From: Bacillota bacterium | GTDB taxonomy: Bacteria; Bacillota; Dethiobacteria; DTU022 | DNA length: 64,000 bases | Direction: 5' to 3' | NCBI GenBank assembly: GCA_046483445.1 | Contig: JAWODD010000041.1 | Coordinates: 42,303 to 106,302, forward strand | Shown here: piece by piece, positions 3,958-52,534 of the stretch | Layout of the letters: every line of letters begins with the position of its first letter | How positions within the stretch are numbered: position 1 is the first letter of the stretch | Notes under the pieces: model-generated | Seen by the model: the letters and a program-made list of their open reading frames with translations, nothing else | What the model was told of the DNA's origin: nothing | Database searches by the model: none | Translations under genes and position numbers: made by a program

Positions 3958-4791
3958 GTGAAAAATATGCTGCAGGCATCAGGGTTGTTTAATCTTGAAG
4001 AAACCCCCTATAATGAACTTTTCGCAGGTACAGAATATGTTTGGGAAGCGCTGCCCCGGATAAAATCTTATCTAAAAGAGCACCTTAATTCCAATGTAGG
4101 TAAAGTGCGCCGGGGCGAAATGGTAATTAATAAAACTTTTGTTTTATATAAGGGCGAGACCCTTAGTTCAGGTTTTGCGATTGATACAAGCGGAAAAAAA
4201 CCCCTGGTGATTAAAGACGGTGTGACCATGGAAGGAGCCAGTATTATTTTCAGCGGGGCGATTTTAATGGATGATCAGATTCAAATCGGGGAAGGGACTG
4301 TTATTGAGCCAACAGCCCTAATTAAAGGGCCCACGATCATCGGAGATCGCACTGAAGTTCGACATGGAGCTTATATCCGTGGAGAAACCATGGTAGGTAA
4401 TGATTGCATAGTTGGACACACCACTGAAATCAAGTCCTCGGTTATGTTGGGCGGCAGTAAAGCCGGTCATTTTGCCTATATCGGAGACAGTATTCTTGGC
4501 AAAGTCAACCTGGGGGCGGGAACCAAGTTGGCCAATGTGAAAATGGGTGATACTCCGATTGTTTTAAGGGTTGCTGGAACTTTTTATGAAACCGGGCTGC
4601 GTAAGTTTGGCGCGGTAATTGCTGACGGTGTAGAAACCGGTTGCAATAGCGTAACTGCACCTGGCACGATTATAGGTAAAAATTCCTTACTTTACCCTGG
4701 AGGAACCGCAAGAGGATGTTACCCTTCAGAAACCGTGATTAAATTTAAGCCAAAACAGGAATTTATAGAAAGAAACCGGGAGGAGAGCTAA
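3958..4791 (+). CDS. hexapeptide-repeat (left-handed beta-helix) acyltransferase-like protein, similar to the C-terminal acetyltransferase domain of GlmU
   Basis: The stretch ...IKSSVMLGGSKAGHFAYIGDSILGKVNLGAGTKLANVKMGD...VIADGVETGCNSVTAPGTIIG resembles the GlmU C-terminus (HLSYVGDSEIGxxVNIGAGTITCNYDG...). No nucleotidyltransferase N-domain is present. 277 aa. Confidence 0.6.
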   Translation: MKNMLQASGLFNLEETPYNELFAGTEYVWEALPRIKSYLKEHLNSNVGKVRRGEMVINKTFVLYKGETLSSGFAIDTSGKKPLVIKDGVTMEGASIIFSGAILMDDQIQIGEGTVIEPTALIKGPTIIGDRTEVRHGAYIRGETMVGNDCIVGHTTEIKSSVMLGGSKAGHFAYIGDSILGKVNLGAGTKLANVKMGDTPIVLRVAGTFYETGLRKFGAVIADGVETGCNSVTAPGTIIGKNSLLYPGGTARGCYPSETVIKFKPKQEFIERNREES

Positions 4792-4795
4792 AGCG

Positions 4796-5698
4796 GTGAT
4801 GAATCGATTATACGGATTGCTTAAGGAAAACGGCCCCCTTACCGGGAAGGAACTGGTGGAAAAAAGCGGCCTGGAAGTGTTTGATGCCTGGAGGAACTGC
4901 TGTAAAGCAGAAGGGATAGTGACTCAAATTGTAGGGAATAGATACCTGCGGTTGGATCAGAAAGTTGCTGGTTATGCCCGCCTCTCGCCTTCTATTATGA
5001 GAGAGTTTTTAAATTATACTGTGGTGGGGCTCGATAAAGATATAGAAACTGTAGCAAAAGAAGCAGATAAACTTACCGATGAGATTACCGCTATTAGTAA
5101 AAAAAAGTTTGATTTAGCCAGGGACACTATTTACCGTTTACTTGAAGAACATCCGGGTAAAAATGCTGTAGTTGAGAAGACAGTTTTTATTATTGCTGGA
5201 GATGTGGTCTATAATATGGCCCACAAAGAACCGCGTCCTGAAGCCTCGACAGGTGAACTGGTTAAGGGTTCCGATTTGGATGTTATTGTGGTAAGCGGTA
5301 ATTTACCCAAACAGGAACTTAATAAACTGGATCAATTAATTTACAGGGAAAAATATAATTTATTGGTAAGCCCGGTATTAAAAGAAGAGCTTGATTATGT
5401 GGTTAAAGATGTAAATATCGTAAAAAGCCAGGTTCAGTTTAATGATTTTAAAGCTATGGTAGCTTCAAAAATACTTTACGAAGGAGTTTACCTTTACGGT
5501 AGTTATGATCTTTACTTGTTGATTAAAAAACTTGTGACTGATTATGGCGTTAACGAAAAGCTGAACTCACTGCAAGAAAAAGCCTGGGAAGACAGACTTG
5601 AAGCGGAGAGAACATTGTTGTCGGCTCCTGGTTCTGCCGGGGAAGAAGAATTAATGACCCTATTTTACACTACTGAAGAAAAAGAGGAAATTTTTTAA
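4796..5698 (+). CDS. hypothetical protein (winged-helix-like N-terminus; weak GSDLD motif)
   Basis: 300-aa ORF placed tightly between the LbH gene (4 nt gap) and nagB (19 nt gap). No confident family assignment by eye. Confidence 0.5.
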   Translation: MMNRLYGLLKENGPLTGKELVEKSGLEVFDAWRNCCKAEGIVTQIVGNRYLRLDQKVAGYARLSPSIMREFLNYTVVGLDKDIETVAKEADKLTDEITAISKKKFDLARDTIYRLLEEHPGKNAVVEKTVFIIAGDVVYNMAHKEPRPEASTGELVKGSDLDVIVVSGNLPKQELNKLDQLIYREKYNLLVSPVLKEELDYVVKDVNIVKSQVQFNDFKAMVASKILYEGVYLYGSYDLYLLIKKLVTDYGVNEKLNSLQEKAWEDRLEAERTLLSAPGSAGEEELMTLFYTTEEKEEIF

Positions 5699-5717
5699 AG
5701 GGTGGGGCAGGAAGCAG

Positions 5718-6455
5718 ATGAAGATTTCAATTGTAGAGGATTATGATCAATTGAGCGAAAAGGCGGCAGCCATTGTTGCCGGGCAGTTGCAGGCAAAGAA
5801 GGATTCAGTTTTAGGGTTGGCCACCGGTTCCACTCCTGAGGGAATGTATGCGAACCTGGTTAAAATGTACCGGGAAGGTCTTCTTGATTTTAGTTCAGTG
5901 ATTACTTTTAATCTTGATGAATATGTTGGACTGTCACCACAGCACCCTCAGAGTTACCAGGCTTATATGTACAGACTTTTTTTCGATCACGTTAATATTA
6001 AGCCGGAAAATATTTATATACCCTCTTTAAATGAAAATATGGATTCTGTTGTACAAGTATGCCGGGATTATGATCAAAAGATTTACCAGGCGGGAGGAAT
6101 TGACCTGCAAATCCTTGGAATAGGCGTAAACGGGCACATCGGTTTTAATGAATCCGGTTCCAGTTTGCCAAAGAATACCTATATGGTAGATTTAAGCCCT
6201 GAAACCATCGAGGCAAACAGCCGCTTTTTTGATTCTGCTGAAGAGGTTCCCCACAGGGCGGTGACAATGGGTTTGGGTCCTATAATGCACGCAAAACGGG
6301 TCCTACTCTTAGCCTCCGGAAGAGATAAAGCCGAGGCGGTCAAGGAATCATTTAGCGGGCATATAACTACTCAAGTTCCCGCCTCCCTGCTCCAACTGCA
6401 CCCTGCTGCTCTGGTGCTTGTAGATCATGAAGCCGCCTTTCTGCTCAACGAATAG
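5718..6455 (+). CDS. nagB: glucosamine-6-phosphate deaminase
   Basis: MKISIVEDYDQLSEKAAAIVAGQL...VLGLATGSTPEGMY...ITFNLDEYVGL...GIGVNGHIGFNE are classic NagB motifs. 245 aa. Confidence 0.85.
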   Translation: MKISIVEDYDQLSEKAAAIVAGQLQAKKDSVLGLATGSTPEGMYANLVKMYREGLLDFSSVITFNLDEYVGLSPQHPQSYQAYMYRLFFDHVNIKPENIYIPSLNENMDSVVQVCRDYDQKIYQAGGIDLQILGIGVNGHIGFNESGSSLPKNTYMVDLSPETIEANSRFFDSAEEVPHRAVTMGLGPIMHAKRVLLLASGRDKAEAVKESFSGHITTQVPASLLQLHPAALVLVDHEAAFLLNE

Positions 6456-6617: not shown

Positions 6618-9600
6618 ATGGACGCCCAGTTTAAATCGGGAGCGCTGGAAGTTAATCTTGCCCAAACAAAGCATGAGCACAAAGAACTTCCCCAAAAACA
6701 TAGCTGGTTTGTTTCTCTGTCCTCTTCTTACTGGGGTATTAACAAAAGAACAGAAGAACTCTTTATTGAATACAACCACCCCCACCCAAATTATGACTAT
6801 ATTATAGAAAACCTGCACACGATCAGTCTAAACGACCTCTGGCTTTACAGCTCTCTTGAAGAATCGGAAGAAGCCCTTCTATTTCTCGTTTCTATCTTTA
6901 AAGATCTTTTCAATAAAGACCTTGCAGAACACCAGCGGGAGCAGCTTGTTAAAACCCTTTTTAAATTTACTGACAGACTGCTTAATGAAGGAAGTTACCC
7001 CCATAAAGTGATTTGGCGGGCCCTGGCTCTAATAGAAGAAGGCCTGGCACAAGATGAACATATTTACCTGCGCAATGCCGGTTATTTTAAAAAATACCTT
7101 TACCGGGCGGCAGCAGTCCCGGAATTTAATGAAGAAGTTTGCCGCCTGACCAAGGAGGTTTTGCGCAAAAGTTGTGCTTTTTGGGAAAGAACCACAAATG
7201 CTGAAGCCTGGTTTGAGAGTAAATCCGAATTATTTCAGCCTGTATATCGGGAGAAGATTAAGTTAATCGGAAAGGATTTCTTTGATCAACTGGCCGAGCG
7301 CATTGAAAACTCACACAGCTGGGAAGAAATCCAATCGAACCTTTTTTACAATGATATTGCCAACCATTTCCGCCACTTTAGCGAAGTATTTGAGTTTTCC
7401 GTAGAAAAAGTATATTACCTGGTATACGCCTTACATATTCCCGGTATGGCCCAATTGAAAAAACATCTCCTCTACGATCTTAACCGTCTGCTTAAAACCG
7501 CCCTTGCCGAACTTGATCACTCGCAAATTTATCACTTTGTTGATATGCTTTTTGATTTTTTCAGCGAACTCAAAGAACAGCAAACCGATACGGTCTTGGA
7601 CTGTATTTTTACCCTGGGAAAAGAGATTGTCAGCATTGATCATGAAAATATCACCGATCATTATATGCAAAAATTAATTGAGTTTGGTTTTGTTTACCCC
7701 GGAAAAGTTGAATTTAACAGTGAATGGGACACAAAAGTTAAAGAAAATCATGTTAAAAACATTCGTATATGGCTCGACCTGATCGAAACCTCCCCCTACA
7801 AATTTAAAAAGCTTTTATCTGCCCTGGTGGTTAATTTAAAACTGGGCGGTATATTTATTTCCGATACGGATCTTTTTCAGCGTGATGTAACCAGGCTCTT
7901 AAATGCTGATATTGCCCCGGTTTATAAACAGGTGAAACAGTTGGCCCGTTTCTTTCCGGTCTATTTTAACGAGATCGGAGCGGAAGGAAAACTGCGCGAA
8001 GTAAGCACCCTGATCGATGAAGTGGCTGGAAGGAAAGATAACGTAATCCACTTTGTTCGCAAGCAGATTCATGCCGAAAGTAATAATACCCACATTGAAC
8101 TGGTTAACCGGGTGGCTTATTACTGGCTCACCGGGGAACGCGCTCCCCTTGAAGAAATTCTTCCTCCAGATGTTTCTGCAACTATGGATGAAAACAACAG
8201 CCTTTTCAGCGGAGTTAATCAGTTAATAAAAGCTGCCTGCTCTCATTTTGCAGTTGACCATGCCGGGTTGCTACGGATTCCTGAAGATACAGTAGCAGCT
8301 TATCTGGAAACATCCTCCATAGCCCATGAGCGAGACAAAAAGCGTTTGCTCTACCTGATTCAGCTGAACCAGCTTTTGTTGGAAAAATATTCGTTTGAAA
8401 CTCGGGATGTTAAAGGCTTGCTTTTAAGCAGTCGTTTTTTTACCCGTGAAGAAATTGACAATTTTGCAGCGCTGCTGGAACAAAATCGCTACCACGAGGC
8501 GTTGGAGCAGCTATATTCATTTATGAGTGTGCTTAAAGAGGTGATTTTGAGTAAATCGGAAACCAAGGCCATTGAAACCATCTACTATAAGCGGCATATA
8601 GCCGCCGGCATTCCCTCTATGTACGGCCAGTATAAAGAACCAAAATTTGAAGCCCTTGGTTTGATGTACAGGCTGGAACAGGTGGCTTCCCGCCTGATGG
8701 AAAAAACTCTTGCAGAAATTGAACTGGAATATATCTCGACCAAAACCCTGCGCAATATATATGAAGTCCTGGTGCTCTTTAAAAAAGGATTGGAACTTGA
8801 TGGGATGGTAAACCAAAATTTTAACTCCACCCTGGAAATGTTTCGTTACAGCCTTACTTCAACCAGTGTGACTTTAAGTCAGCACATGAATATATTTCGG
8901 TTTATGTCCCAGCATATCAAAGAACTGATCAACGAATATTTTATCCGGGTTTATGATGAAACCATCAATGTAGTGATCCCCCAGATTTTTGATCATTCTC
9001 CGGAAACACTTGCCAGGGAATCGGAGAAATTTTACCGCGATATTCTTTCTTCTGCATTTTTAATCCAGGAACTGGATCAATTTATTACCAATGCTTTGAA
9101 TATGATCAACAATATGCTAGAAAATTATTCTGAAGAGCATATTAACAATATGATGAGTTTTAACCCGGAACTGGCTATCAGCCCACTCGATTGCGAAACT
9201 CTTAAAATGGATAACCAGGTATTTCTCGGGGCCAAAGCTTATTACCTGAAAAAGTTAATGGCTTACAGTTTGCCTGTACCGCCAGGTTTTGTGATTACTA
9301 CCGAAGTATACAGACACAAGGAGACAATTTTTAAGCACCCTTACATGAGCATGGAATTGCACAAAATGATTGCCCGCCAGGTTGAGGTGATAGAGAAAAA
9401 AACAGGCCTGAAATTTGGCAGCACCACTCGGCCCATGCTTTTATCAGTCCGTTCCGGGACGGCAATTTCTCTGCCCGGGGCGATGAGCACTTTTCTCAAT
9501 GTGGGCATGACCGAAGAAATTGCCCGTAGTTTGGATAAAAGTCCCGAAACTTCCTGGATGGGTTGGGATTCCTACCGCCGGTTTATCCAAAGCTGGGGGA

Positions 9601-10682: not shown

Positions 10683-10725
10683 TCGGTATAAAAACTGAGA
10701 TAGATTATTAATTGAAGGAGGATTT

Positions 10726-11982
10726 GTGGTGAGCAGCTACCTGCAAAGCAAGAAAACTTTAGGAATCAACGGAGCCGGACGAATTGGCAAGTTAACTCTT
10801 TGGCATCACTTAAACGATGGGCATTTTGATTATTTTATAATCAACACCGGTCGGGGAGCAGGTAAAAAACTGGAAGATATAATTGATTACCTGGTAAAGG
10901 ATTCTACTTTTGGTTCCCTGGATCGCTTTATGTATGGGTATTCCGGAAAAACTTGTACTATAGAAATTACCGAGCGGGAAGCAAACTTATTTACAATAAA
11001 TGGTGTTCCGGTTAAAATTACCACTTATTCTCGGAATCCGCGGGAGATAAACTGGGCCAAAGAAGGAGTGCAGCTTGTAATTGAGTGCACCGGCAGTCAT
11101 GTCGATCCAGCGGCGCCGGCCGATCAGCCGAAGGGCAGTGTGCGAGGGCATCTTGAAGCCGGTGCTGAGAAAGTTATCGTCAGCGCCCCTTTTAAAGTGG
11201 CTGATGAAGCTAAAAAAATGCCTGCAGATAGCTGCATGTTTGTTTACGGGATTAATCATGATAAGTATGATCCTTCCACCCATCATATCTTGTCTGCGGC
11301 CAGCTGTACCACTACCGGGTTGTCGCATATGATAAAACCCCTGCTGGAAACCAGGGAAACGGCGAGTGTTATTACCGCCTCGATGTCTACAGTTCACGCC
11401 GCTACCAATAATCAAAAAATCTTGGATGCAGTGCCTAAAGCAGGGACTTCAGATTTGCGCAAAAATCGCTCTATCTTTAATAATATTATTCTTACCAGTA
11501 CCGGAGCTGCAAAAGCCCTGGAAGAAATTATGCCGGAAATTAAAGATATTGGCTTTATGGCCGACTCGGTAAGGATTCCCACCAATACCTCTTCACTAAT
11601 TATGCTTAATGTAACTTTTAAAACCGATCTCAATGCTTCCGGGGAACCCCTGGTTAACCGGGATCTGATCAATGAAATCTATAAAAAAGCCTCTGCCGGC
11701 GCTCAAAAAGGAATGGTGGTTTACAGCGAGAAGCAAAATGTTTCCACCGATCTGGCCGGCTTTCCAGCGGCAATAGTAATTGAGGGTGTAGAAACCCATT
11801 CCCGCACAGGGTTTATCAGGCTTAATGCTGAAATCATACAGGAACATGGTGTTGAAGCGCCTACCGATATTAATATTCCGGTTACCCATGCAAAAATATT
11901 TGGTTGGTATGACAATGAATTGGGCAGCTATGTTAATCTGCTTGGCAAACTGGCCGTCTATGTGGATAAAAACATGCCCTAA
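10726..11982 (+). CDS. divergent glyceraldehyde-3-phosphate dehydrogenase-family protein (418 aa, with insertions)
   Basis: GGAGG RBS then GTG. N-terminal Rossmann motif LGINGAGRIGKL (compare GINGFGRIGR). Catalytic motif SAASCTTTGLSHMIKPL (compare SNASCTTNCLAP). Also AEKVIVSAPFK (compare GAKKVIISAP). About 80 aa longer than a canonical GapA. Confidence 0.7.
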   Translation: MVSSYLQSKKTLGINGAGRIGKLTLWHHLNDGHFDYFIINTGRGAGKKLEDIIDYLVKDSTFGSLDRFMYGYSGKTCTIEITEREANLFTINGVPVKITTYSRNPREINWAKEGVQLVIECTGSHVDPAAPADQPKGSVRGHLEAGAEKVIVSAPFKVADEAKKMPADSCMFVYGINHDKYDPSTHHILSAASCTTTGLSHMIKPLLETRETASVITASMSTVHAATNNQKILDAVPKAGTSDLRKNRSIFNNIILTSTGAAKALEEIMPEIKDIGFMADSVRIPTNTSSLIMLNVTFKTDLNASGEPLVNRDLINEIYKKASAGAQKGMVVYSEKQNVSTDLAGFPAAIVIEGVETHSRTGFIRLNAEIIQEHGVEAPTDINIPVTHAKIFGWYDNELGSYVNLLGKLAVYVDKNMP

Positions 11983-12003: not shown

Positions 12004-13134
12004 ATGGTAAATTCGGACGGCAAAGCAGTAGTCGCCCTCGAACAATGTTTGCGCTATCATCCCCAAACAGTGCGTAGTAGTTTAGAACAGCTTTTGGGAC
12101 ATTTCGGCGGAATAAATAGCCTGGTTAAACCCGGCCAAAAAGTTCTCCTTAAGCCGAACCTGCTTGCGGCTGCGCTACCGGTGGAAGCAGTGAGCACCCA
12201 TCCCGTGGTGATGAAAGCCATGGCTGAAATGATCTTAGAAGCAGGCGGCAGGGTCTATCTGGGAGACAGCCCCGGCAATGATTCCCAGGAAAAAGCTTTG
12301 CGAGTATGCGGGATGAAAGAGGTTATTGAAGAAACCGGGGCGGAAACGCTTTTTTTTAATGATACAACCAATGTGGAAGTTAACAATTTTAAAAAAAGAG
12401 ACATTCCGGTTGCCGCGGCCCTGAAGCAGGTTGATCTCATTTTCAACATGGGTAAGTTAAAAACGCATGCTTATACCGGAATGACCGGGGGCATTAAAAA
12501 TGTATTTGGCTGTGTGGTTGGGAGCAGAAAAGCCCGCTTCCATTTGGATTATCCTTTCCCTCTTGATTTTTCCAGGCTTTTAGTCGATGTCTACCTGGCT
12601 GTAAAACCTTCCTTTTCCATCTTGGACGCGGTTATTGCTATGGAAGGAACAGGGCCCAGGCGGGGCAGGCCGCGTCAGCTTGGCTTGCTGATGGCTTCGC
12701 CCAGTGCAGTGGGCTTAGACAGGGTGGCTGCGGCAATTACCGGTTTTTACCTTGAAGAGGTTCCTACTTTGGTAGCGGCTAAAGAATTAAATTTGACCGG
12801 ATCGGAGTTATCTTCAGTCCTGGTTAAAGGACTATCTCTGGAAAGAAGCAAGGTTTTAGATTTTGACAAAGGCCCTGCCGCCGGGGGGAGATTAAGTCGC
12901 CTGTTAGCGATGTTTCCGGTGGCCCGCATTCGGGACTTTTTTGCAGCAAGACGTCCCTATCCCAAAGTGAAACCTGCTCTTTGCAACGGCTGCGGGGTTT
13001 GCCGGGACAATTGTCCGGCCCAGGTAATTGAATTTAAGATGTCTATACCGGATATAGATTACCGGGGGTGTATTCGCTGTTACTGCTGCCAGGAATTTTG
13101 TGCGCAGGGGGCAATTGACCTTACAAATAAATAA
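12004..13134 (+). CDS. DUF362 domain protein with C-terminal 2x[4Fe-4S] ferredoxin-type domain
   Basis: Two CxxCxxCxxxCP-type motifs at the C-terminus (CNGCGVCRDNCP and CIRCYCCQEFC). The N-terminal 300 aa resemble the DUF362 family common in Clostridia. Confidence 0.7.
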   Translation: MVNSDGKAVVALEQCLRYHPQTVRSSLEQLLGHFGGINSLVKPGQKVLLKPNLLAAALPVEAVSTHPVVMKAMAEMILEAGGRVYLGDSPGNDSQEKALRVCGMKEVIEETGAETLFFNDTTNVEVNNFKKRDIPVAAALKQVDLIFNMGKLKTHAYTGMTGGIKNVFGCVVGSRKARFHLDYPFPLDFSRLLVDVYLAVKPSFSILDAVIAMEGTGPRRGRPRQLGLLMASPSAVGLDRVAAAITGFYLEEVPTLVAAKELNLTGSELSSVLVKGLSLERSKVLDFDKGPAAGGRLSRLLAMFPVARIRDFFAARRPYPKVKPALCNGCGVCRDNCPAQVIEFKMSIPDIDYRGCIRCYCCQEFCAQGAIDLTNK

Positions 13135-14896: not shown

Positions 14897-15145
14897 ATGG
14901 TCAAGGTTTATGCATTAAGCACCTGTCCCTGGTGCAAAAAAGTTAAGAAATTGCTCGATGATCGCGGAATTAACTATGATGTAATCGATGTTGATTTAGC
15001 CCAGGGAGAAGAACAGAAAAAAGCTTTAAAAGAAGTAGAAGACTTAACCGGTAAAAGGTCTTTTCCGGTAACGGTAATTAATAACCAGGTGATCCAGGGT
15101 TTCAAACAGGAAGAAATTGCAGGGGCGCTCGATAGTGAAAAATAA
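14897..15145 (+). CDS. glutaredoxin-like protein (YruB/NrdH-like, CPWC active site)
   Basis: MVKVYALSTCPWCKKVKKLLDDRGINYDVIDVD shows a thioredoxin-fold CxxC motif. 82 aa. Starts 25 nt after the serA stop. Confidence 0.8.
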   Translation: MVKVYALSTCPWCKKVKKLLDDRGINYDVIDVDLAQGEEQKKALKEVEDLTGKRSFPVTVINNQVIQGFKQEEIAGALDSEK

Positions 15146-15509
15146 AATATACTGCGAGGTGTGCCAGAGTTCTTTCGTTTATAAGGGTGTAATTAGTCCC
15201 GGACAGGTAATTGTATGTACAATTTGCGGCGCCGAACTGGAGATTAAAGAAAGTGATCCGGAGATAAAAGCGGCGCGCCTGGAACAGGATCCGGAAACTG
15301 AAATTTCTCGGAGGGCTGAAAATTTTGCCCGGTTGCGCGGCTACACCTTCAATGAAGACAAAGAGCTTGTGCTGGAAGGCCTGGTGGAAAAACACAGATT
15401 GTTTGGTGATTTTTACTGTCCCTGCCGATTTGCGCATGTTCCGGAATACGTTTGTCCCTGCCTGGAAACCCGGATGAATGAGGTGCGCAAAACAGGGAAA
15501 TGTTATTGA
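15135..15509 (+). CDS. ferredoxin-thioredoxin reductase catalytic-subunit-like protein with N-terminal rubredoxin-like zinc ribbon (start may be the ATG at 15117)
   Basis: N-terminus CEVCQ...CTICG is a rubredoxin-like CxxC...CxxC. C-terminus ...FGDFYCPCRFAHVPEYVCPCLETRMNEVRKTGKC carries the CPC...CPC motifs of the FTR catalytic chain. Overlaps the end of the glutaredoxin-like gene. Confidence 0.65.
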   Translation: MKNKIYCEVCQSSFVYKGVISPGQVIVCTICGAELEIKESDPEIKAARLEQDPETEISRRAENFARLRGYTFNEDKELVLEGLVEKHRLFGDFYCPCRFAHVPEYVCPCLETRMNEVRKTGKCY

Positions 15510-15569: not shown

Positions 15570-16508
15570 ATGAAGATAGATTTCGTGCGCGGTCATATGG
15601 GGGGCAACTTAATTGTCCTCGTTAAAGGAGAGCAAATACCCGGAGGCAGGGAACTGGAAACCGGGGTTAAACTGCTTAAACCTCACTACCTTTGCGCCCA
15701 TGAAATAGGGATTCTTTATCCGGCAGGCAGAGCTTCCGAACTGACAGTAAAAATAGCTGAACCGACTTCGGAGTGTTTTATCAGCGCCTGCGGCGGGTTC
15801 ACCCAGGTGCTCGGAGCAGCCCTGATTGAGACCGCGCTTGGCGATGATTTAGGGGTGGAGAAAAAAGAACCTTTAACAAAGGTGCTGTTGCACACCGAAG
15901 GTGGACAAGTGCCCCTGGAGATTGAAACCAAAGGCAATAAATCCCTGCGCATTAAAACCGATATGACCAGTTTTGTCCAGGAAAGTTATGAAAAGGGTAT
16001 CGGTAAGTTGAAGCATGAAAATTTGGAAGTTATGCAGGCTGGTAAATTTTTAGTGATCAATGCTGATCGTTTTAAGGAAGCTTACCCGTGGGCTGATTTT
16101 GAAAAATGGGATCAAAAAACCAGGCAAAAAGTCAATGATATCCAGGATCAGTTTATTGCTGAAACCGGTGAAGATGAGTATAATGTGGTTCTTTACGACT
16201 GGCATCCTGAATACGGGATGGATTTAAGGGTGGTTTATCCGCACTGTGTGAAAGCCGATTATTTTGAACCCTCCTGCGGCACAGGCACTGTAGCCTTAGG
16301 CCTTGCAGTCCTGGCCTGGGATGAATTGCCTGAAGAAACAAAAGAACGGGATACTGTAACTCTAAAATTTGAATGTGGCGGAAATATTGAACTGGGCGGC
16401 CCGGAGATTACGGAACTGGAAATGAAAGTTGAAAACGGGCGGGTTAAGGAAGCGGCCTTATCACACAGCAAGGTCGAAATTACAGCGGTTGGAGAAGCCT
16501 GGTTATAG
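15570..16508 (+). CDS. proline-racemase / DapF-fold two-cysteine isomerase family protein, specificity unknown
   Basis: C-terminal motif EPSCGTGTVALGLAV matches the proline-racemase family second catalytic Cys motif (SPCGTGTSAKLA). N-terminal KIDFVRGHMGGNLIV roughly matches IDSHTGGEPTRIV. The first-Cys region SACGGFTQVLGAA fits as well. 312 aa. Confidence 0.6.
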   Translation: MKIDFVRGHMGGNLIVLVKGEQIPGGRELETGVKLLKPHYLCAHEIGILYPAGRASELTVKIAEPTSECFISACGGFTQVLGAALIETALGDDLGVEKKEPLTKVLLHTEGGQVPLEIETKGNKSLRIKTDMTSFVQESYEKGIGKLKHENLEVMQAGKFLVINADRFKEAYPWADFEKWDQKTRQKVNDIQDQFIAETGEDEYNVVLYDWHPEYGMDLRVVYPHCVKADYFEPSCGTGTVALGLAVLAWDELPEETKERDTVTLKFECGGNIELGGPEITELEMKVENGRVKEAALSHSKVEITAVGEAWL

Positions 16509-19128: not shown

Positions 19129-20625
19129 TTAAAGCCGGTTCAAGTACTGCTTCAAATGCTCAGGCATTTGTTCAGGTTTGATCACCTGGTGATGCTTTAC
19201 CGGTTTTTTTTCCAGTTTTGCCAGGTTTACTGGAACCGGCATTCCGGTTTCCCGGTTTAAAATCTTGATCATATCAAATTCGCTTAGGTTATTTATCTTG
19301 TTTTTATCGAACAGGGCCTGCAGGGTGCTCCCGGCGAATTTATAGGGGCTGGCTGTGGATAAAAGGACCGAGGTAGTTGGGTCATTTTCCTTTTCCCGGT
19401 ATTTGTCCAGCACGTTTTTCCCAACCGCAGTATGCGGGTCGGTTAAATAGTGGTAATTCCGGTAAGTGTCAGCTATAGTCTGCAGGGTTTCATCATCTCC
19501 GGCATAATCCGACCAGAACAATTCCTGTATTTTTTTGTGAGTTTCCTGATCGATTGTGTAAGTGCCTGTTTCGGTTAGCTGGTCCATCCAATATGATATT
19601 TTTTCACCGTCGTGGTTGGTTAACTCGAATAGCAGGCGTTCAAGATTGCTCGATACCAGGATGTCCATGGAAGGAGAATGGCTCCTATAAAAAGGCCTGC
19701 GCTTGTCATAAGTGCCTGTGTTAATAAAATCAGTGAGGACATTATTGCGGTTGGCGGCACAAATCAACCGGTTAACCGGCAGGCCCAGGCATTTGGCATA
19801 ATAACCGGCCAGGATATTGCCAAAATTGCCGGTGGGAACAACAAAATTTACTTTATCTCCGGCTTTGAGAGCTTCCCGGTTGATCAGCTGGCGGCAAGCG
19901 AAAAAGTAATATACTATTTGAGGCAGCAGGCGCCCCCAGTTAATTGAATTGGCCGAGGATAATCGGTAGCCCGATTTCTGCAGCTTTAAAGAGAATTCCT
20001 GGTCATTAAAGATTTGTTTAACTGCGCTTTGCGTATCATCAAAATTACCTTCTACGGCGAATACTCCCACATTTGAGCCTTCCTGGGTGGTCATTTGCAA
20101 TCTTTGAATTTCACTGACTCCTCTTTCCGGGAAGTAGACAATGATTTTTATTCCGGGGACATCGCGAAACCCTTCCAGGGCTGATTTGCCGGTATCGCCG
20201 GAAGTAGCGGTTAAGATCACTATTTCTGAAGCTTCACTGGCGGTTTCAACTGCGGTTTTTAAAAGGTAAGGTAAAATCTGCAGGGCAATATCTTTGAAAG
20301 CATAGGTGGGACCGTGAAAGAGCTCCAGGACATCTAGTTGGCTGGAGAGTTTTTCCAGAGGAGTGATTGCCGGCTGGTCAAAAGTATCCTGAGTGTAAGC
20401 GGATTGAACCGCGTGTTCTATTTCCAGCCGGCTGTAATCTTTCAGGAAAGGTTCAAAAATGGCCGTGGTTGTTTCCCGGTAATCACTGGCAGACAAATTT
20501 TCTACTTTAATGGACTGGAGCGGTTCAGCAGGGACGAATAGCCCTCCGTCAGGCGCTAACCCCTTGATGATTGCTTCTTTGGCGGTGGTGGGCCCTGTTT
20601 GACCCCTGGTGCTGTAATAACGCAT
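19129..20625 (-). CDS. thrC: threonine synthase (long form)
   Basis: MRYYSTRGQTGPTTAKEAIIKGLAPDGGLFVP is the classic ThrC N-terminus. 498 aa. AAGGGG RBS. Confidence 0.9.
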   Translation of the reverse strand: MRYYSTRGQTGPTTAKEAIIKGLAPDGGLFVPAEPLQSIKVENLSASDYRETTTAIFEPFLKDYSRLEIEHAVQSAYTQDTFDQPAITPLEKLSSQLDVLELFHGPTYAFKDIALQILPYLLKTAVETASEASEIVILTATSGDTGKSALEGFRDVPGIKIIVYFPERGVSEIQRLQMTTQEGSNVGVFAVEGNFDDTQSAVKQIFNDQEFSLKLQKSGYRLSSANSINWGRLLPQIVYYFFACRQLINREALKAGDKVNFVVPTGNFGNILAGYYAKCLGLPVNRLICAANRNNVLTDFINTGTYDKRRPFYRSHSPSMDILVSSNLERLLFELTNHDGEKISYWMDQLTETGTYTIDQETHKKIQELFWSDYAGDDETLQTIADTYRNYHYLTDPHTAVGKNVLDKYREKENDPTTSVLLSTASPYKFAGSTLQALFDKNKINNLSEFDMIKILNRETGMPVPVNLAKLEKKPVKHHQVIKPEQMPEHLKQYLNRL

Positions 20626-20746
20626 TTAATCTGCCCCTTTTGATATTATTTCTTGGTGCATTATAAAAATTCGCCATTAATGGGGGAAATTCCTTTATGG
20701 TGTTTAAAGCTTGTCCTTTTGCTCCTGGATTTCTTGGCCTCCGGCC

Positions 20747-20781
20747 CGGTGCCCTTGACAAAAGTAAGTTAAAAGTATATT
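20747..20781 (+). promoter_or_regulatory. putative sigma-A promoter for the iPGM-like gene
   Basis: TTGACA, then the 17-nt spacer AAAGTAAGTTAAAAGTA, then TATTTT. Confidence 0.4.
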
Positions 20782-20851
20782 TTCATGGCACAGCTTGCAG
20801 TTCCTGCAAAATTTTGCCTCTGCCAACCTGGTAAAGGAGCGTGATTAACAC

Positions 20852-22066
20852 TTGAAGTACATAGTAATTGTCGGAGACGGGATGGCTGATTACCCTATGG
20901 AGCAGTTGGGTAACAAGACAGCTTTGCAGTATGCTCAAACTCCTTCGTTTGACCGGATTGCCGCTGAAGGTGAAGTTGGATTGGTCAAAACAATTCCGGG
21001 TGATCTGCCTCCGGGAAGTGATACGGCTAATCTTTCGGTAATTGGTTATGACCCGCTGCAGTACTATACCGGGCGTTCTCCTTTTGAAGCGATTAGCCTG
21101 GGAGTGGAATTGGAACCCACCGATGTTTCTTTTCGCTGCAATTTGGTTACTCTTTCAGAGGATGAACCTTACCGGAGTAAAATGATGAGCGACTACTGTG
21201 CCGGTGAAATATCAACCGAGGAAGCTGGTGAACTTATAGCTGCAGTAAATGAAAAGCTTGCAACAGAGAAAATTGAATTTCACAGCGGTTTTAACTACCG
21301 GCATCTTATGGTTTGGCATGGCGCCCCTGATCATTGGGAGCTAACCCCGCCCCATGATATTAGCGGACAGGCAATCAGCAGTTACCTTCCCGCAGGGGAG
21401 GAAAGCGACAAATTAAGGTTAATGATGGAGGAAAGTTACAGGATTCTTGCCGACCACCCGGTAAACCGTAAAAGAATTGACAAAGGGCTAAACCCGGCCA
21501 ATTCCATCTGGATCTGGGGCAACGGCAAGAAACCGCTTTTGCCCGCTTTTAAGGAAAAATACGGTTTGAACGGGTCGGTAATTTCGGCTGTTGATCTGGT
21601 TAAGGGGATCGGCTTATTTGCCGGTCTCGATTTGATTAAAGTAGAGGGGGCTACTGGCAACCTGGATACCAATTACAGGGGAAAGGCTGAAGCGGCGATT
21701 AAAGCGCTTCAGGGCGATCAGGATTTTATTTACCTGCACGTTGAAGCTCCCGATGAATGTTCCCACCGCTTTGAAACGGAAAATAAGCTCAAAGCAATTG
21801 AATTAATCGATCAAGAAGTGGTAAAAACAATCACTGATTATTTGGAAAAAAGCGGTTTTGACTATAATATACTAATGATTACCGATCATTACACCCCGCT
21901 TTCGCTGGGAACTCATACCAGGGAACCGGTCCCTTTTGCCATTTATCGCAGCAGCGGCCCTAATAAGGTCCAGGAACTAAAATTTGATGAAGCCAGCGCT
22001 TCCGGCACCGGTTTATTTATAGAGGAAGGTTACCGGTTAATGGACCGCTTTATAAAACAGGCATGA
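20852..22066 (+). CDS. cofactor-independent phosphoglycerate mutase family (archaeal ApgM-type); probably the 'proposed homoserine kinase' subgroup found beside thrC
   Basis: MKYIVIVGDGMADYPMEQLGNKTALQYAQTPSFDRIA...GSDTANLSVIGYDP is typical of the COG3635 / ApgM family. TTG start with an AAGGAG RBS. Divergently adjacent to thrC. Confidence 0.75.
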   Translation: MKYIVIVGDGMADYPMEQLGNKTALQYAQTPSFDRIAAEGEVGLVKTIPGDLPPGSDTANLSVIGYDPLQYYTGRSPFEAISLGVELEPTDVSFRCNLVTLSEDEPYRSKMMSDYCAGEISTEEAGELIAAVNEKLATEKIEFHSGFNYRHLMVWHGAPDHWELTPPHDISGQAISSYLPAGEESDKLRLMMEESYRILADHPVNRKRIDKGLNPANSIWIWGNGKKPLLPAFKEKYGLNGSVISAVDLVKGIGLFAGLDLIKVEGATGNLDTNYRGKAEAAIKALQGDQDFIYLHVEAPDECSHRFETENKLKAIELIDQEVVKTITDYLEKSGFDYNILMITDHYTPLSLGTHTREPVPFAIYRSSGPNKVQELKFDEASASGTGLFIEEGYRLMDRFIKQA

Positions 22067-48306: not shown

Positions 48307-48541
48307 AATCAAATAGCGTAAAAAGCAATGAAGGAAAGAAGTAGCCGGATTAATTTCCTTTTATCCAGGCAGTGAGTCGGGGATAGTGAAAGCCCGGCGG
48401 GCAGTTCGGTGAATGGCGTTCCTGAGCTTTAAAAAAGAATCAAGCGGGCTCCAGATTTTGGCTTTTGGAGTCAAGTAGGGTGGAACCGCGGGAACACCTC
48501 TCGTCCCTATGGTTATGATAACCAGGGGAGGGAGGTTTTTT
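48307..48541 (+). promoter_or_regulatory. T-box riboswitch leader (glycine-specific, glyQS)
   Basis: Conserved T-box sequence AGTAGGGTGGAACCGCGGGA at ~48474-48493. Candidate GGC specifier region (..AAAGCCCGGCGGGCAG..). Terminator-like GC hairpin followed by the T-run GGAGGTTTTTT at ~48530-48541. glyQ lies immediately downstream. Confidence 0.7.
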
Positions 48542-48616
48542 GATCTTATATCAGTTAAAGGGCTAAAATTATTTATTTACCAAGTAAAATTGTCTAAATG
48601 CAAAGGAGGAATCGCC

Positions 48617-49498
48617 TTGGATTTACAAACACTGATGATGAAATTTCAAGAATACTGGGACTCCAGGGGATGCTTGATCTGGCAGCCTTATGATGTTGAA
48701 AAGGGCGCGGGCACAATGAATCCGGCTACCTTTTTAAAATCATTGGGTCCGGAGCCATGGTCGGTAGGCTATGTTGAGCCTTCAAGACGACCGGCGGACG
48801 GGCGTTACGGTGAAAACCCAAACCGGCTTTACCAGCACCTGCAGTACCAGGTTATTATTAAACCGACCCCGCCTGATATTCAGGATCAATATCTTGACAG
48901 TCTGGCTTATCTTGGACTCGATCCGCTTGAACATGATATCCGTTTTGTGGAAGATAACTGGGAAGCTCCAACCCTCGGAGCCTGGGGATTGGGTTGGGAA
49001 GTCTGGCTTGATGGAATGGAGATCACCCAGTTCACTTATTTCCAGCAGGTAGGGGGCTATGATGTTGAAAAAGTCCCGGTAGAGTTGACCTACGGCCTTG
49101 AAAGAATTGCCATGTATTTGCAGGATCGGGATAATGTATTTGATTTGATTTGGACCGGTAATATTACCTACGGTGAAGTTTATAAGCGGGTTGAATGGGA
49201 ACAGTCCAGCTACAGCTTTGATTATGCGGACCTTGATTTGCTTTTTAACCTGTTTAATTTATACGAAAAGGAAGCAAAAAGGCTTTTGGAGCTCAATTTG
49301 GTTTATCCCGCTTATGATTATATTTTAAAGTGTTCCCATACTTTCAACAATCTTGATGCCAGGGGAGCGATCAGTGTTACTGAAAGGGCCGCCTACATCG
49401 GCCGGGTTCGGACCCTGGCCCGGCTTTGTGCCGATTGTTACCTTAAACAGAGGGAAGCAGCCGGTTATCCTTTAATGGCTGGAGGTGGAGTAAAATGA
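48617..49498 (+). CDS. glyQ: glycine--tRNA ligase alpha subunit
   Basis: TTG start with an [49 protein letters not shown] matches GlyQ (LQDYWARQGCTIVQP...). Confidence 0.9.
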
Positions 49499-51573
49499 AA
49501 AACAGCAATGATCTATTGATGGAAATAGGATGTGAGGAAATTCCATCACGATTCTTGCCCGGGGCTATGGAACAGTTAAAAAACGGAGCTTTATCCCTTT
49601 TGGCGGAATACAGGTGCAAACATGGAGAAATTTCAACCTATGCCACTCCCAGGCGGTTGGTAGTTTTGGTCAAAGAACTGGCATCGATGCAGGAGGATCT
49701 GGTGGAGCGGGTAAAAGGGCCGCCGGTAAACCGGGCTTACGACGAACAAGGTCAGCCAACCAGGGCCCTGCATGGTTTTATTCAATCCCAGGGAGTTTCC
49801 ATGGAGCAAATAGAAGAAGAAACCATAAAAGACGCCCGCTATATTTTTGCCCGCAAGGAGATACCCGGTCAGCCGGCGGAAAATATACTGCCGGAACTGC
49901 TTCCGCAGCTTATCCGCAAAATCAGTTTTCCGCGTCCAATGTACTGGCAGAGTAAAGAAGTGCGCTTTGCCCGGCCGATTCGCTGGCTACTTGCTCTTTA
50001 TAACAGCAAGGAACTGCCGTTTGAATTTGCCAGAGTTACTGCAGGCAGGTATACTTACGGTCACCGGTTTTTAGCTTCCGGGCCGTTTGAAGTTAAAGAC
50101 GTGGATCATTATTTCCATTGTCTTGAAGAAAGCTATATCATACTGGATCAGGATCGCCGGAAAAATATGATCCGGGAACAACTCGAACAGAAAGCGGCAG
50201 AAATTGGCGGGAAGGCCCTTGTAGAAGAAGAACTTCTTGAAGAAGTCACTTACCTGGTTGAATACCCGGTAGCTATTGATGGCTCGTTCGATCAAGCTTA
50301 CCTGGATTTGCCCCAGGAAGTACCCATAACTACTATGCAAAACCACCAGCGATATTTTCCCATTGTGGAAAAAGAAAGTGGACGCTTAATGCCTTATTTT
50401 ATCGGGATCAGTAATAACAAATTTAATCCTAATATAAGAAAGGGATATGCCAAAGTGCTGCAGGCCCGTTTGGCTGACGGACAGTTTTTCTTTAATGAAG
50501 ACCGAAAAAAATCGCTTGAAGAATATGTGGGAGAGTTGAAAAATGTGGTTTTCCTGGAATCCCTGGGGACCCTTGATCAAAAACGAGCCCGGTTGGTTGA
50601 ACTTACCTGTAAATTAAGTGATAACCTGACTTTACCGGCAGAAAAAATTGAAAAAGCAAAAAGGATTGCGCATTTGTGCAAGGCCGATCTTGTTACCGGA
50701 ATGGTCAATGAATTTACAGAACTGCAGGGGGTAATGGGGCGAGAATACGCCAGGCTTAGCGGTGAAGACCCGGAGGTTGCCAACGGTATTTATGAACATT
50801 ACCTGCCCCGTTATTACGGGGATTACTTGCCTTCAAAAATTGAGACTGCCCTGGTATCCCTGGTCGATCGCATTGATACCCTGGCCGGTTGTTTCGCTAT
50901 CGGGATCCAACCAACCGGTTCACAGGATCCATATGGATTGCGCCGCCAAGCCCAGGGAGCTATTAGCATTCTTCTTGGTCTTGAGATTAATCTTTCTTTA
51001 GAAGAGTATCTCGACAGGGCCCTGGACACGATTACTTCTGAAGTTCCCCTGGAAAATGAAGAGCGTGAAAAAGTTAAGACAAACCTGTGGGAATTCATGA
51101 TTCAGCGCATCCGCTTTATACTTCAGGAAAAAGGGACTGGCCATGATTTGGTCGAAGCGGTGCTGGCTGTGCCTTTTAATACTGTTGGAGAACTGTTTAA
51201 CCGGGTAAATGTATTAAGCGAATATTTAAAGGGACCGCTTCTAGATGATGTAATTATTGCTTATAACCGGGTGGCTAATCTTGCCGCTAAAGCGCCGGGT
51301 GGTGATATTGATCAAAATCTACTTACCGAACCGGCGGAAAAAGATCTTTTCAGTAAATACCAGGTGGTCAGTGATGAAATCGAAGCTCTAACCGATCCCG
51401 TCAAAATGCTGGAAAAGGTGCAAACTTTAAAAGAACCGGTAGATGATTTCTTCGATGATGTCATGGTCATGGTTGATGATGACAAAATTCGTGAAAACAG
51501 ATTAAACATGCTGCTATTAATCAAGAAATTGTTTAACAGGTTGGCTGATTTTTCTAAACTGCAGACTCCTTAA
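49495..51573 (+). CDS. glyS: glycine--tRNA ligase beta subunit
   Basis: 692 aa. [21 protein letters not shown] is the GlyS N-terminus. ATGA overlap with glyQ. Confidence 0.9.
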
Positions 51574-51709
51574 ATATAGTTTTCCGGCAGGAAGAAACCG
51601 GATCTTTATCGTATACTTTATTTACATTATAGATTTAGTGGACAAGAATCCGGATTGTCCTGCTGAGAAGAATTTTAGATTATTGTTATTATCAGAGAGG
51701 AGTTTGCTG

Positions 51710-52534
51710 ATGGAGGGACCTATTGAAAAACCGGTTATTTACCTGGTTTCTGATTCAATCGGCGATACAGCAGAATTTGTGGTCAAAGCTGTGGCCAGTC
51801 AGTTTGATTCCGGTCAGGTGGAAATGCGGCGGGTGCCATTTGTGGAAGAAGAGTCGCAAATCAGGGCTGTTTTTGAAGAAGCATCGGGGAAAAATGCCAT
51901 CATAGCTTATACCCTGGTAGTTCCCGAACTGCGCCAGGCAATGGCGGAAGAGGCAATAAGACATTCAGTGCTGACTGCCGATATTCTTGGTTCACTAATG
52001 GGTGCTTTTACGAGGGCTACCCATAAGGAACCTCGCCTTGAGCCCGGAAGAGTCAGGCAACTTGATGAAGCCTATTTCCGCCGGATGGCAGCAATTGAAT
52101 TTGCAGTTAAGCATGATGATGGAAAAGATCCGCGCGGTATAATGAAGGCTGATGTTGTCCTGGTTGGTATTTCCAGGACTTCGAAAACTCCCTTAAGTAT
52201 GTACCTGGCTCATCAGGGCATTATGACGGCTAATTTGCCGCTCGTTCCCGAGGTGGAACCTCCGGAAGAGCTGTTTTGGATTCCGCCGCAAAGAATAATC
52301 GGCCTGGTCATCGATCCTAAACAGCTTCAGCAGATCAGGCGGGAGCGCTTGAAAAGTCTGGGGCTTGATGAAAATGCCGATTATGTCAATGTGGAAAGAA
52401 TCGAAGAGGAGTTGACCTACGCTCGCCGGATAATGAAAAAACTTGGCTGCACTGTTTTTGAAGTTTCTGATAAGGCTGTTGAAGAGGTGGCCAACAGGAT
52501 TATTCAGGTAATTAAAGGAGGAGAAAAAATTTGA
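51710..52534 (+). CDS. pyruvate, phosphate dikinase regulatory protein (PDRP; bifunctional kinase/pyrophosphorylase, DUF299)
   Basis: MEGPIEKPVIYLVSDSIGDTAEFV...VLVGISRTSKTPLSMYLA (P-loop). The ORF-track 5' extension from 51638 was rejected. The stop overlaps the ppdK start. Confidence 0.85.
   Translation: MEGPIEKPVIYLVSDSIGDTAEFVVKAVASQFDSGQVEMRRVPFVEEESQIRAVFEEASGKNAIIAYTLVVPELRQAMAEEAIRHSVLTADILGSLMGAFTRATHKEPRLEPGRVRQLDEAYFRRMAAIEFAVKHDDGKDPRGIMKADVVLVGISRTSKTPLSMYLAHQGIMTANLPLVPEVEPPEELFWIPPQRIIGLVIDPKQLQQIRRERLKSLGLDENADYVNVERIEEELTYARRIMKKLGCTVFEVSDKAVEEVANRIIQVIKGGEKI

Follow-up and report, generated by a model that had tools for sequence, protein, structure and literature searches.

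Background

To our knowledge, lower glycolysis and gluconeogenesis are regarded as essentially fully catalogued, and the bypasses of glyceraldehyde-3-phosphate dehydrogenase (GAPDH) and phosphoglycerate kinase (PGK) that we know of, GAPN and GAPOR, are all glycolytic and non-phosphorylating. Here we present a two-gene module from a 64-kb stretch of DNA of a Bacillota bacterium (contig JAWODD010000041.1), the whole of which is called the window throughout. The module consists of a large protein derived from pyruvate phosphate dikinase (PPDK) and, directly downstream, a GAPDH-family protein that is distinctly longer than the classical enzyme. These two proteins, referred to below as the dikinase and the long GAPDH, probably carry out a step in central sugar metabolism that is new to the literature; full-text literature searches found no published description of the pair.

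On the dehydrogenase side, the closest described enzymes are the type I GAPDHs, such as GapA of Bacillus stearothermophilus and Thermus thermophilus (1gd1, 1vc2). With these the long GAPDH shares the Gp_dh_N/Gp_dh_C fold, the catalytic Cys149/His176 pair, the Ps and Pi anion sites and the WYDNE motif, but it is only ~31-33% identical to them and, unlike them, is almost always encoded behind a dikinase. A second point of comparison is B. subtilis GapB, where residue 32 is Ala. Like the long GAPDH it lacks Asp32 and is a second isoform beside a canonical NAD-type enzyme, but it is of normal length (~340 aa), is a clear type I member and has no coupling to a dikinase. The idea of paired NAD+- and NADP+-dependent GAPDHs appears in a passage of PMC6543838 that cites Fillinger et al. 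2000.

On the phosphotransferase side, the dikinase shares with PPDK of C. symbiosum (1kbl) the ATP-grasp and phosphohistidine swivel domains with all key residues; it differs in having an 860-residue novel helical N-terminus and in ending right behind the His domain. PGK has no sequence or fold relation to the dikinase and transfers phosphate directly between ATP and ADP, whereas the reaction proposed below, with the same organic substrates, would use ATP/AMP (with Pi/PPi, inorganic phosphate and pyrophosphate) through a phosphohistidine. Succinyl-CoA synthetase and ATP-citrate lyase offer an established precedent for the step from phosphohistidine to acyl phosphate: in both, an ATP-grasp domain phosphorylates a mobile histidine, from which a carboxylate receives the phosphate to become an acyl phosphate. 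The acceptor sites of these enzymes have other folds, however, their acyl phosphate is captured by CoA and not reduced, and they have no homology to the dikinase beyond the ATP-grasp superfamily. Finally, VadK (Rv1127c) of Mycobacterium tuberculosis has the nucleotide-binding and His domains of PPDK and is encoded near the enzymes it affects (PMC13400623). It is actinobacterial, ~50 kDa by its reported mass (m/z 50498), is linked to the methylcitrate cycle and not to GAPDH, and has no counterpart of the large N-terminal domain that makes the dikinase a protein of 1354 aa.

Results and discussion

The long GAPDH gene

The open reading frame (ORF) at 10726-11982, which the preliminary description had placed in the GAPDH family by its GINGAGRIGK and SCTTT motifs (aa 13-22 and 193-197), indeed matches both Pfam domains of that family, Gp_dh_N with 51.8 bits and Gp_dh_C with 85.4 bits. 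Counted from the GTG at 10726 it comprises 418 codons, and the identical database protein (P0001) has 417 aa; a second GTG, at 10729, begins 7 nucleotides (nt) after the AGGAGG at 10716-10721. The length of P0001 and this spacing both fit a start at GTG 10729, which is probably where translation begins. More than 100 clusters of this protein are found in public data (65-100% identity, nearly all 417 aa) and relatives are encoded in 545 of 600 stretches scanned from species-representative genomes, so the ORF is not a chance one.

The protein exceeds GapA of B. stearothermophilus and E. coli by 84-87 aa, close to the ~80 aa first estimated. A long insert absent from canonical GapA had been pointed out; the segment in question (DPAAPADQP) turned out to add only ~9 residues relative to GapA, and the extra length is scattered over at least 10 insertions, the largest being ~24 aa near aa 358-388 and ~15 aa near aa 66-82. 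An AF2 model of the catalytic domain was poor (pLDDT ~57 to <50), because its alignment was restricted to sequences of at least 65% identity, and was left unused.

As noted at the outset, 43 nt separate the stop of the dikinase ORF from the long GAPDH ORF, and 21 nt separate the latter from an ORF for a DUF362/4Fe-4S protein. Since a terminator scan between the dikinase and GAPDH genes found no convincing terminator, the two are probably co-transcribed. An Rfam search for an RNA element or riboswitch upstream returned only tRNAs and a T-box elsewhere. Membership in an anti-phage defence system was considered and rejected, as the PADLOC defence models matched neither protein.

The pair is conserved across phyla

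The neighbourhood was sampled from both sides. On the GAPDH side, 80 loci from species-representative genomes and 6 from exact-protein look-ups gave 86 loci, of which 77 had enough upstream DNA to be informative; on the dikinase side, 80 metagenome loci were collected through the N-terminal domain of the dikinase, and 69 were informative. In 73 of the 77 GAPDH loci the gene next upstream, read in the same direction, encoded a dikinase homolog, typically of ~1360 aa; the two were a median of 36 nt apart, and several pairs overlapped. Reciprocally, a long GAPDH gene followed immediately in 51/69 dikinase loci. This linkage is a direct observation and bears out the earlier suggestion that the dehydrogenase is tied to the neighbouring PPDK paralog.

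At 58% identity or more, the GAPDH-like family was found in Syntrophomonadaceae (the closest, 92%), Anaerovoracaceae, Fusibacter, Alkalibacter, Sinanaerobacter and Petroclostridium, in Lentimicrobium and other Bacteroidales, in Desulfobacteraceae including strain NaphS2, and in Cloacimonadota, Elusimicrobia, Calditrichaceae, Sumerlaeota and Dehalococcoidia. Carriers of the pair include Fusibacter paucivorans DSM 12116, Alkalibacter mobilis, Sinanaerobacter chloroacetimidivorans, Petroclostridium sp. X23 and strain NaphS2, and it is present in the complete genomes CP069393.1, CP124862.1, OW818645.1, OY782829.1 and OY781100.1. Adjacency of the pair spans at least 8 phyla, among them Bacillota, Bacteroidota, Desulfobacterota, Cloacimonadota and Elusimicrobia, while all other neighbours change, and it persists down to 50% identity (protein P0122, in a locus with a dikinase C-terminus upstream, L087). 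Clustering of the neighbouring ORFs in the 86 + 80 loci revealed no third conserved gene. The DUF362/Fe-S protein was rejected as a third component because it is confined to the Syntrophomonadaceae-like clade of the window (10/86 loci) and is absent downstream in L004, L005 and all other phyla; its placement, offered at first as a functional clue, is not supported as a sign of partnership. Other candidate neighbours (an ABC transporter, LepA, a sigma factor, a dynamin-like GTPase and others) were discarded as rarer and lineage-specific. An apparent dikinase-GAPDH fusion, P0202, proved to be an adjacent pair merged by a frameshift, and two P. thermosuccinogenes proteins that had seemed promising, CDQ83_04880 and CDQ83_03625, do not belong to this family, since the termini deduced from their cloning primers mismatch.

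Two variations in the sample are recorded here. One Desulfobacteraceae metagenome-assembled genome (BH30, JAERTK01) has two copies of the pair on different contigs (L069 and L080). In two Lentimicrobium loci (L042, 5213-9425; L044, 666-4621) the long GAPDH has no dikinase upstream and comes after a xanthine-dehydrogenase-like molybdoenzyme (Fer2 + MoCoBD) and an amidohydrolase, while other Lentimicrobium genomes have the normal pair.

Seen from the dikinase, the partner is not always the long form. Among 74 full-length dikinase genes, 40 had only a long GAPDH beside them, 7 stood in the order canonical gap, dikinase, long GAPDH (spacings -25 to +31 nt), 10 had only a canonical gap, divergently upstream, and 17 had neither within the stretch covered, so that some GAPDH gene was linked to ~57 of the 74. 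The canonical neighbours keep Asp32 and SCTTN, and the one in L086 passes the cutoff of the type I GAPDH equivalog model TIGR01534 (375.8 vs 367.2 bits). Because canonical gap also adjoins it, the dikinase is tied to GAPDH function as such. Long form and an adjacent type I GAPDH coexist in at least nine loci (L086, L064, L141, L142, L146, L149, L154, L159 and L161). In tblastn searches that used E. coli sequences as queries, neither pgk nor tpi turned up in the window or in the 86 related loci, and the window holds no canonical gap-pgk-tpi locus by the same search.

These data bear on the simplest view of the locus, namely that the long GAPDH is an ordinary housekeeping or gluconeogenic isoform resembling GapB, and that adjacency reflects co-regulation of central carbon genes with no mechanistic coupling. 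Stand-alone long forms do occur among housekeeping genes (P0124, beside ychF and gltX; also P0138), loss of Asp32 recalls the NADP-preferring GapB of B. subtilis, and the window has serA downstream and nagB upstream of the pair. Loose co-regulation would, however, hardly keep two genes together in at least 8 phyla amid otherwise shifting neighbourhoods, nor does it account for operon-like spacing with several overlapping stop and start codons, or for a dikinase of near-constant architecture with GAPDH linkage at ~57/74 loci. We consider this explanation very improbable.

Active site and class of the long GAPDH

To compare active sites, 82 family members were aligned to B. stearothermophilus GapA, the numbering of which is used here. 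Invariant in 82/82 were Cys149, His176, Ser148, Thr150, Thr151, Thr179 and Gln182, as well as Arg194, Arg197, Thr208, Gly209, Arg231, Asn313, Glu314 and Tyr317; the WYDNE motif is likewise invariant. Among the residues of the Ps site (Thr179, Arg231, Arg195) and the Pi site (Ser148, Thr150, Thr208, Gly209), position 195 alone varies, being Lys in 62 members and Arg in 20. With all of their residues conserved, the thioester-forming dyad and both anion sites are intact. This inventory is observed directly, as are the departures from GapA: Asp32 is missing, its position being occupied by A/V/T/I/L and followed by an invariant Gly-Arg; Asn152 is Thr throughout, turning SCTTN into SCTTT; Arg13 is Lys; the S-loop is 4 residues longer; and Pro188 is variable. 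The substitution of AGRIG for FGRIG, proposed earlier as distinctive, is not a family feature, since the residue concerned is L/I/A/M/V across the 82 members. Because Asp32, which in NAD-specific type I enzymes holds the adenosine ribose of NAD+, is absent, the long GAPDH may possibly use NADP(H).

The window protein thus has the Gp_dh_N/Gp_dh_C domains and the Cys149/His176 pair of a type I GAPDH, and it scores 303.6 bits on TIGR01534, below the cutoff of 367.2; long forms from four other phyla score 296-312 bits. Its scores on the Epd models TIGR01532 and NF010058 (122.2 and 108.8 bits vs cutoffs of 530.55 and 539) and on the ArsJ-associated GAPDH model NF033735 (168 bits vs 450) also fall short, and no recurrent ArsJ-like neighbour was present in 166 loci. 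Its best solved relative is the T. thermophilus enzyme 1vc2 (E 5e-39). An exhaustive search of 1.84 billion representative sequences returned a compact family followed by a tail of long-form proteins of 375-450 aa at 36-50% identity, and canonical GAPDHs appeared only at ~125 bits. In a quick neighbor-joining tree without support values, the window family nests in this long-form radiation, apart from the canonical type I enzymes. The N-x-G-R, SCTTT and R-K-x-R motifs are common to the entire radiation and are therefore features of the class; for the same reason we rejected the idea that Asp32 was lost as an adaptation to the dikinase.

Judged by sequence, then, the long GAPDH is a member of a separate, unnamed long-form class. 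The preliminary description was right that it is not a canonical glycolytic GapA: it lies under the type I cutoff and in a clade of its own instead of clustering tightly with GapA, and long form and type I enzyme occur side by side in the nine loci listed above. Taken together with the model of the dikinase as its partner, we hold it as a tentative proposal, somewhat short of probable, that the long GAPDH would be a catalytically competent, phosphorylating GAPDH and an obligate partner of that dikinase.

The preliminary description had gone further and proposed a substrate other than glyceraldehyde 3-phosphate (G3P) or 1,3-bisphosphoglycerate (1,3-BPG). In that case the protein would be a dehydrogenase of some other phospho-aldehyde or acyl phosphate and the dikinase would make the acyl phosphate from another carboxylic acid; together the two enzymes would reduce a carboxylate in the manner of Asp kinase/ASADH or ArgB/ArgC. 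The sub-cutoff TIGR01534 score is compatible with this, as are the remodelled S-loop with its 4-residue insertion, the variable Pro188, the invariant N152T and the ~85 extra residues, and tight coupling to a phosphotransferase fits the logic of a kinase plus a reductase. It is difficult to reconcile with the full conservation of both anion sites, for the C3 phosphate and for inorganic phosphate, and with scores for erythrose-4-phosphate dehydrogenase (122 vs 530) and the ArsJ type (168 vs 450) that lie far under the GAPDH-I score. Moreover, these class motifs are also present in relatives that neighbour PGK or are joined to it in one protein, canonical GAPDHs scoring above or close to the GAPDH-I cutoff occur beside the dikinase as well, and no other pathway genes are conserved nearby. 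This alternative seems to us distinctly unlikely. The invariant phosphate-site residues, the PGK links of the sister lineages and the presence of the dikinase beside ordinary GAPDHs favour G3P/1,3-BPG chemistry, and the proposal of another substrate is not supported.

Architecture of the dikinase

Three regions follow one another in the dikinase: an N-terminal domain (aa 1-~860), a PPDK-type ATP-grasp nucleotide-binding domain (aa ~865-1209) and a phosphohistidine swivel domain (aa ~1262-1342) with the catalytic His motif GGVTSHAAV, which is conserved in 73/73 sequences. The PEP/pyruvate TIM-barrel (PF02896) is absent, so that the protein lacks one of the three domains that define PPDK; on the PPDK model TIGR01828 it reaches 363.6 bits, with positions 13-337 of the 865 in the profile aligned, against a cutoff of 843.45, and on the 534-position PPDK model NF004531/PRK05878 it scores 280.8 bits against a cutoff of 456. 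Its best match in the PDB is C. symbiosum PPDK 1kbl (254 bits, residues 17-337 and 390-508), and the equivalents of K22, R92, R135, Q240, E279/D280, E323, Q335, R337 and T-S-H455 are conserved in all 73 dikinases. These domains and catalytic residues are observed directly, and with them the dikinase has, in principle, what it needs for the ATP/AMP/PPi/Pi partial reaction and for bearing a phosphohistidine. Database entries describe the two proteins in general terms: "PEP/pyruvate-binding domain-containing protein", "ppdk2" and, for the partner, "GAPDH NAD-binding domain-containing protein".

The N-terminal domain resembles helical-repeat scaffolds only. It has one beta-hairpin (aa 652-673), with the invariant sequence E-x-I-Y-Y-K-R-H-I-A-x-G-I-P-S-M-Y-G-Q-Y, and an invariant S-D-T-D-L-F motif at aa 415-420; in total ~30 polar or charged residues are invariant, among them D416, D418, E456, R460, H485, E487, N489, N490, K658, R659 and H660. 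They are equally conserved whichever GAPDH type adjoins the dikinase, and for both reasons the domain looks like an active site. Its profile matches 1521 protein clusters (90% identity) at E <= 0.001; among the matches listed, 120/120 clusters share the architecture of the dikinase, and the family is essentially never seen in another.

VadK suggests a quite different function for such a protein. It autophosphorylates on its catalytic His, pulls down enzymes encoded nearby and has been proposed to modulate them by binding (PMC13400623). By analogy, the dikinase would be a regulatory histidine autokinase whose helical domain binds GAPDHs and whose phosphorylation state reports ATP/AMP/PPi/Pi levels; it would switch or phosphorylate the long (or the neighbouring canonical) GAPDH, and the long GAPDH would be an ordinary G3P/1,3-BPG isoform under its control. 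The dikinase has the same two catalytic domains as VadK and reaches the above 280.8 bits on NF004531/PRK05878, its extra domain resembles scaffolds that are typically protein-binding, and association with two GAPDH types fits a partner acting at the protein level. Against this, the dozens of invariant charged N-terminal residues (DxD, KRH), the same beside a long, a canonical or no GAPDH, look more catalytic than like an interface fitting two GAPDH types that are ~30% identical. The catalytic half also matches the true PPDK model (363.6 bits) better than the PRK05878 model, and the occurrence of PGK at the equivalent position in sister lineages suggests a metabolic replacement. We regard such a regulatory role, the chief rival of the reaction proposed below, as credible but unlikely.

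The window also encodes a genuine three-domain PPDK (Table 1), with glyQS upstream and an HdrA/MvhD-like protein and dnaG downstream. A 298-aa ORF (51638-52534) overlaps the start of this PPDK gene and might be a candidate PPDK regulatory protein.

Sister lineages and PGK

Two long-form relatives, P0127 and P0133, are encoded directly downstream of pgk, on three contigs, and a third, P0131, is a giant protein in which GAPDH-like domains are fused to a PGK domain. Adjacency to PGK, or fusion with it, connects the long-form class with 1,3-BPG chemistry; and with pgk directly upstream of P0127 and P0133, the dikinase sits where PGK sits in these relatives. Others, namely P0124, P0129, P0134, P0136 and P0138, stand alone among housekeeping genes.

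The upstream PGK genes encode proteins of 441 aa (L088, 587-1912; L090, 90-1415; L091, 66-1391), against a typical PGK length of ~395 aa, and the L088 copy, the only one compared by tblastn, shares ~26% identity with the E. coli enzyme, so that some lineage seems to have a divergent pgk-gap pair. P0131 (2089 aa) has four GAPDH-like domains flanking its PGK domain, and P0176 (1455 aa) has two GAPDH-like domains with HEAT-like repeats recognized by eye; both have a signal-peptide-like N-terminus and the NGAGRI and SAASCTTNA motifs, as in the long-form class.

A proposed reaction for the pair

The reading that we favour, tentatively and at rather less than even confidence, is that the dikinase may be an analogue of PGK that interconverts 3-phosphoglycerate (3-PG) and 1,3-BPG with ATP/AMP (plus Pi/PPi) in partnership with the long GAPDH. 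In this scheme the ATP-grasp domain would charge the swivelling His (ATP + Pi + His <-> AMP + PPi + His~P), and phosphoryl groups would pass between His~P and the carboxyl group of 3-PG, either at the N-terminal domain or at the GAPDH. The net reaction of the dikinase would be 3-PG + ATP + Pi <-> 1,3-BPG + AMP + PPi, and the long GAPDH would interconvert 1,3-BPG and G3P, possibly with NADP(H). We infer from the features above the substrate of the dikinase, the cofactor, the direction of the reaction and any physical complex of the two proteins. A more specific version, in which the pair would be a previously unknown, AMP/PPi-linked and phosphohistidine-mediated replacement of PGK, with the His delivering phosphate to 3-PG in or beside the GAPDH active site, is possible but more doubtful.

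In support of the PGK-analogue proposal, the dikinase half is complete and PPDK-like, and the PEP/pyruvate domain is absent, unlike in the true PPDK of the window. The proposal draws equally on the intact GAPDH active site, the linkage of the pair across phyla, the association of the dikinase with canonical gap, the position of PGK in sister lineages, the invariant residues of the N-terminal domain and the precedent of succinyl-CoA synthetase and ATP-citrate lyase. The energetics are also compatible. Taking standard free energies of about -49 kJ/mol for hydrolysis of 1,3-BPG and about +46 kJ/mol for formation of ATP from AMP + PPi, one arrives at roughly -4 kJ/mol for 1,3-BPG + AMP + PPi -> 3-PG + ATP + Pi, which would make the proposed reaction about as reversible as that of PPDK. 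In the direction of G3P, the gluconeogenic pull would be much stronger than with PGK, and in the glycolytic direction the outcome would be a PPi-linked gain of ATP. A strong gluconeogenic pull would suit the carriers of the module, because these anaerobes degrade fatty acids, amino acids and aromatics.

Several observations weigh against this proposal. An 860-residue helical solenoid is an odd site for a three-carbon acid, such folds commonly binding macromolecules. The Asp32-less N-x-G-R motif also occurs in stand-alone, apparently housekeeping long forms, and nothing in it is specific to coupling with a dikinase. In four of the GAPDH loci, and in about ten of those found through the dikinase, the partner is missing from the vicinity, and the poor AF2 model gives no placement of the GAPDH insertions relative to the active site. 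Furthermore, the two-domain PPDK truncation VadK is reported to be a regulatory autokinase that binds metabolic enzymes and not a metabolic enzyme itself (PMC13400623).

Other features of the window

The features of the module and its surroundings are collected in Table 1. The three genes that precede the dikinase are co-conserved with it only in the clade of the window (L001, L008, L010, L013-L015). Downstream of the cluster, the overlapping arrangement of the glutaredoxin-like gene and the 130-aa ORF is kept in L001. The phosphoglycerate-mutase-family protein divergent from threonine synthase may be an alternative homoserine kinase rather than a glycolytic mutase.

Table 1. Features of the two-gene module and of other regions of the window
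Feature	Coordinates	Strand	Remarks
PPDK-derived dikinase, 1354 aa	6618..10682	+	Pfam PPDK_N + PEP-utilizers only
N-terminal alpha-solenoid-like domain of dikinase	6618..9200	+	Novel, all-alpha; aa 1-~860
Intergenic spacer, 43 nt	10683..10725	+	Carries ribosome-binding site AGGAGG (10716-10721); sequence read
Long-form GAPDH-family dehydrogenase, 417/418 aa	10726..11982	+	Gp_dh_N + Gp_dh_C, TIGR01534 score; probable start GTG 10729
DUF362 + 4Fe-4S dicluster protein	12004..13134	+	Pfam DUF362 174 bits
Genuine three-domain PPDK, 886 aa	52531-55191	+	PPDK_N, PEP-utilizers, PEP-utilizers_C
Hexapeptide (GlmU-like) acyltransferase, 300-aa protein, NagB (glucosamine-6-P deaminase)	3958-6455	+	Before dikinase; 300-aa protein without family match
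Glutaredoxin-like gene overlapping 130-aa ORF	14897-15509	+	130-aa ORF: LysW-type zinc ribbon + ferredoxin-thioredoxin-reductase catalytic-chain domain
312-aa ORF	15570-16508		Follows the 130-aa ORF; without family match
LonB/LonC-like protease homolog, 812 aa	16614-19052	-	AAA_32, LonB LID, LonC helical, Lon_C; downstream of cluster, opposite strand
Threonine synthase and divergent gene	19129-22066		Threonine synthase on - strand
Cofactor-independent phosphoglycerate-mutase-family protein	20852-22066		Divergent from threonine synthase
T-box leader	48319-48511	+	97.1 bits (cutoff 93); directly upstream of glyQ/glyS
glyQ/glyS	48509-51573		

Conclusions

The two-gene module occurs in at least several hundred species-level genomes of strictly anaerobic phyla, and its carriers include syntrophs, sulfate reducers, Bacteroidota of digesters and sediments, and Cloacimonadota. 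Whichever role the dikinase has, both genes are at present mis- or under-annotated, as "pyruvate phosphate dikinase" and "type I GAPDH". Were the dikinase a VadK-like regulator, a principle just described in mycobacteria would extend to the control of GAPDH in many phyla. If instead it acts on 3-PG and 1,3-BPG, the module would represent a new enzyme activity and would alter the ATP/PPi bookkeeping and the metabolic models of many uncultured anaerobes; the PGK-analogue proposal would also bear on how PPi-dependent glycolysis is balanced. As a true replacement of PGK, the pair would serve energy-limited anaerobes either as an irreversible 3-PG reductase in gluconeogenesis or as a glycolytic step that conserves PPi.

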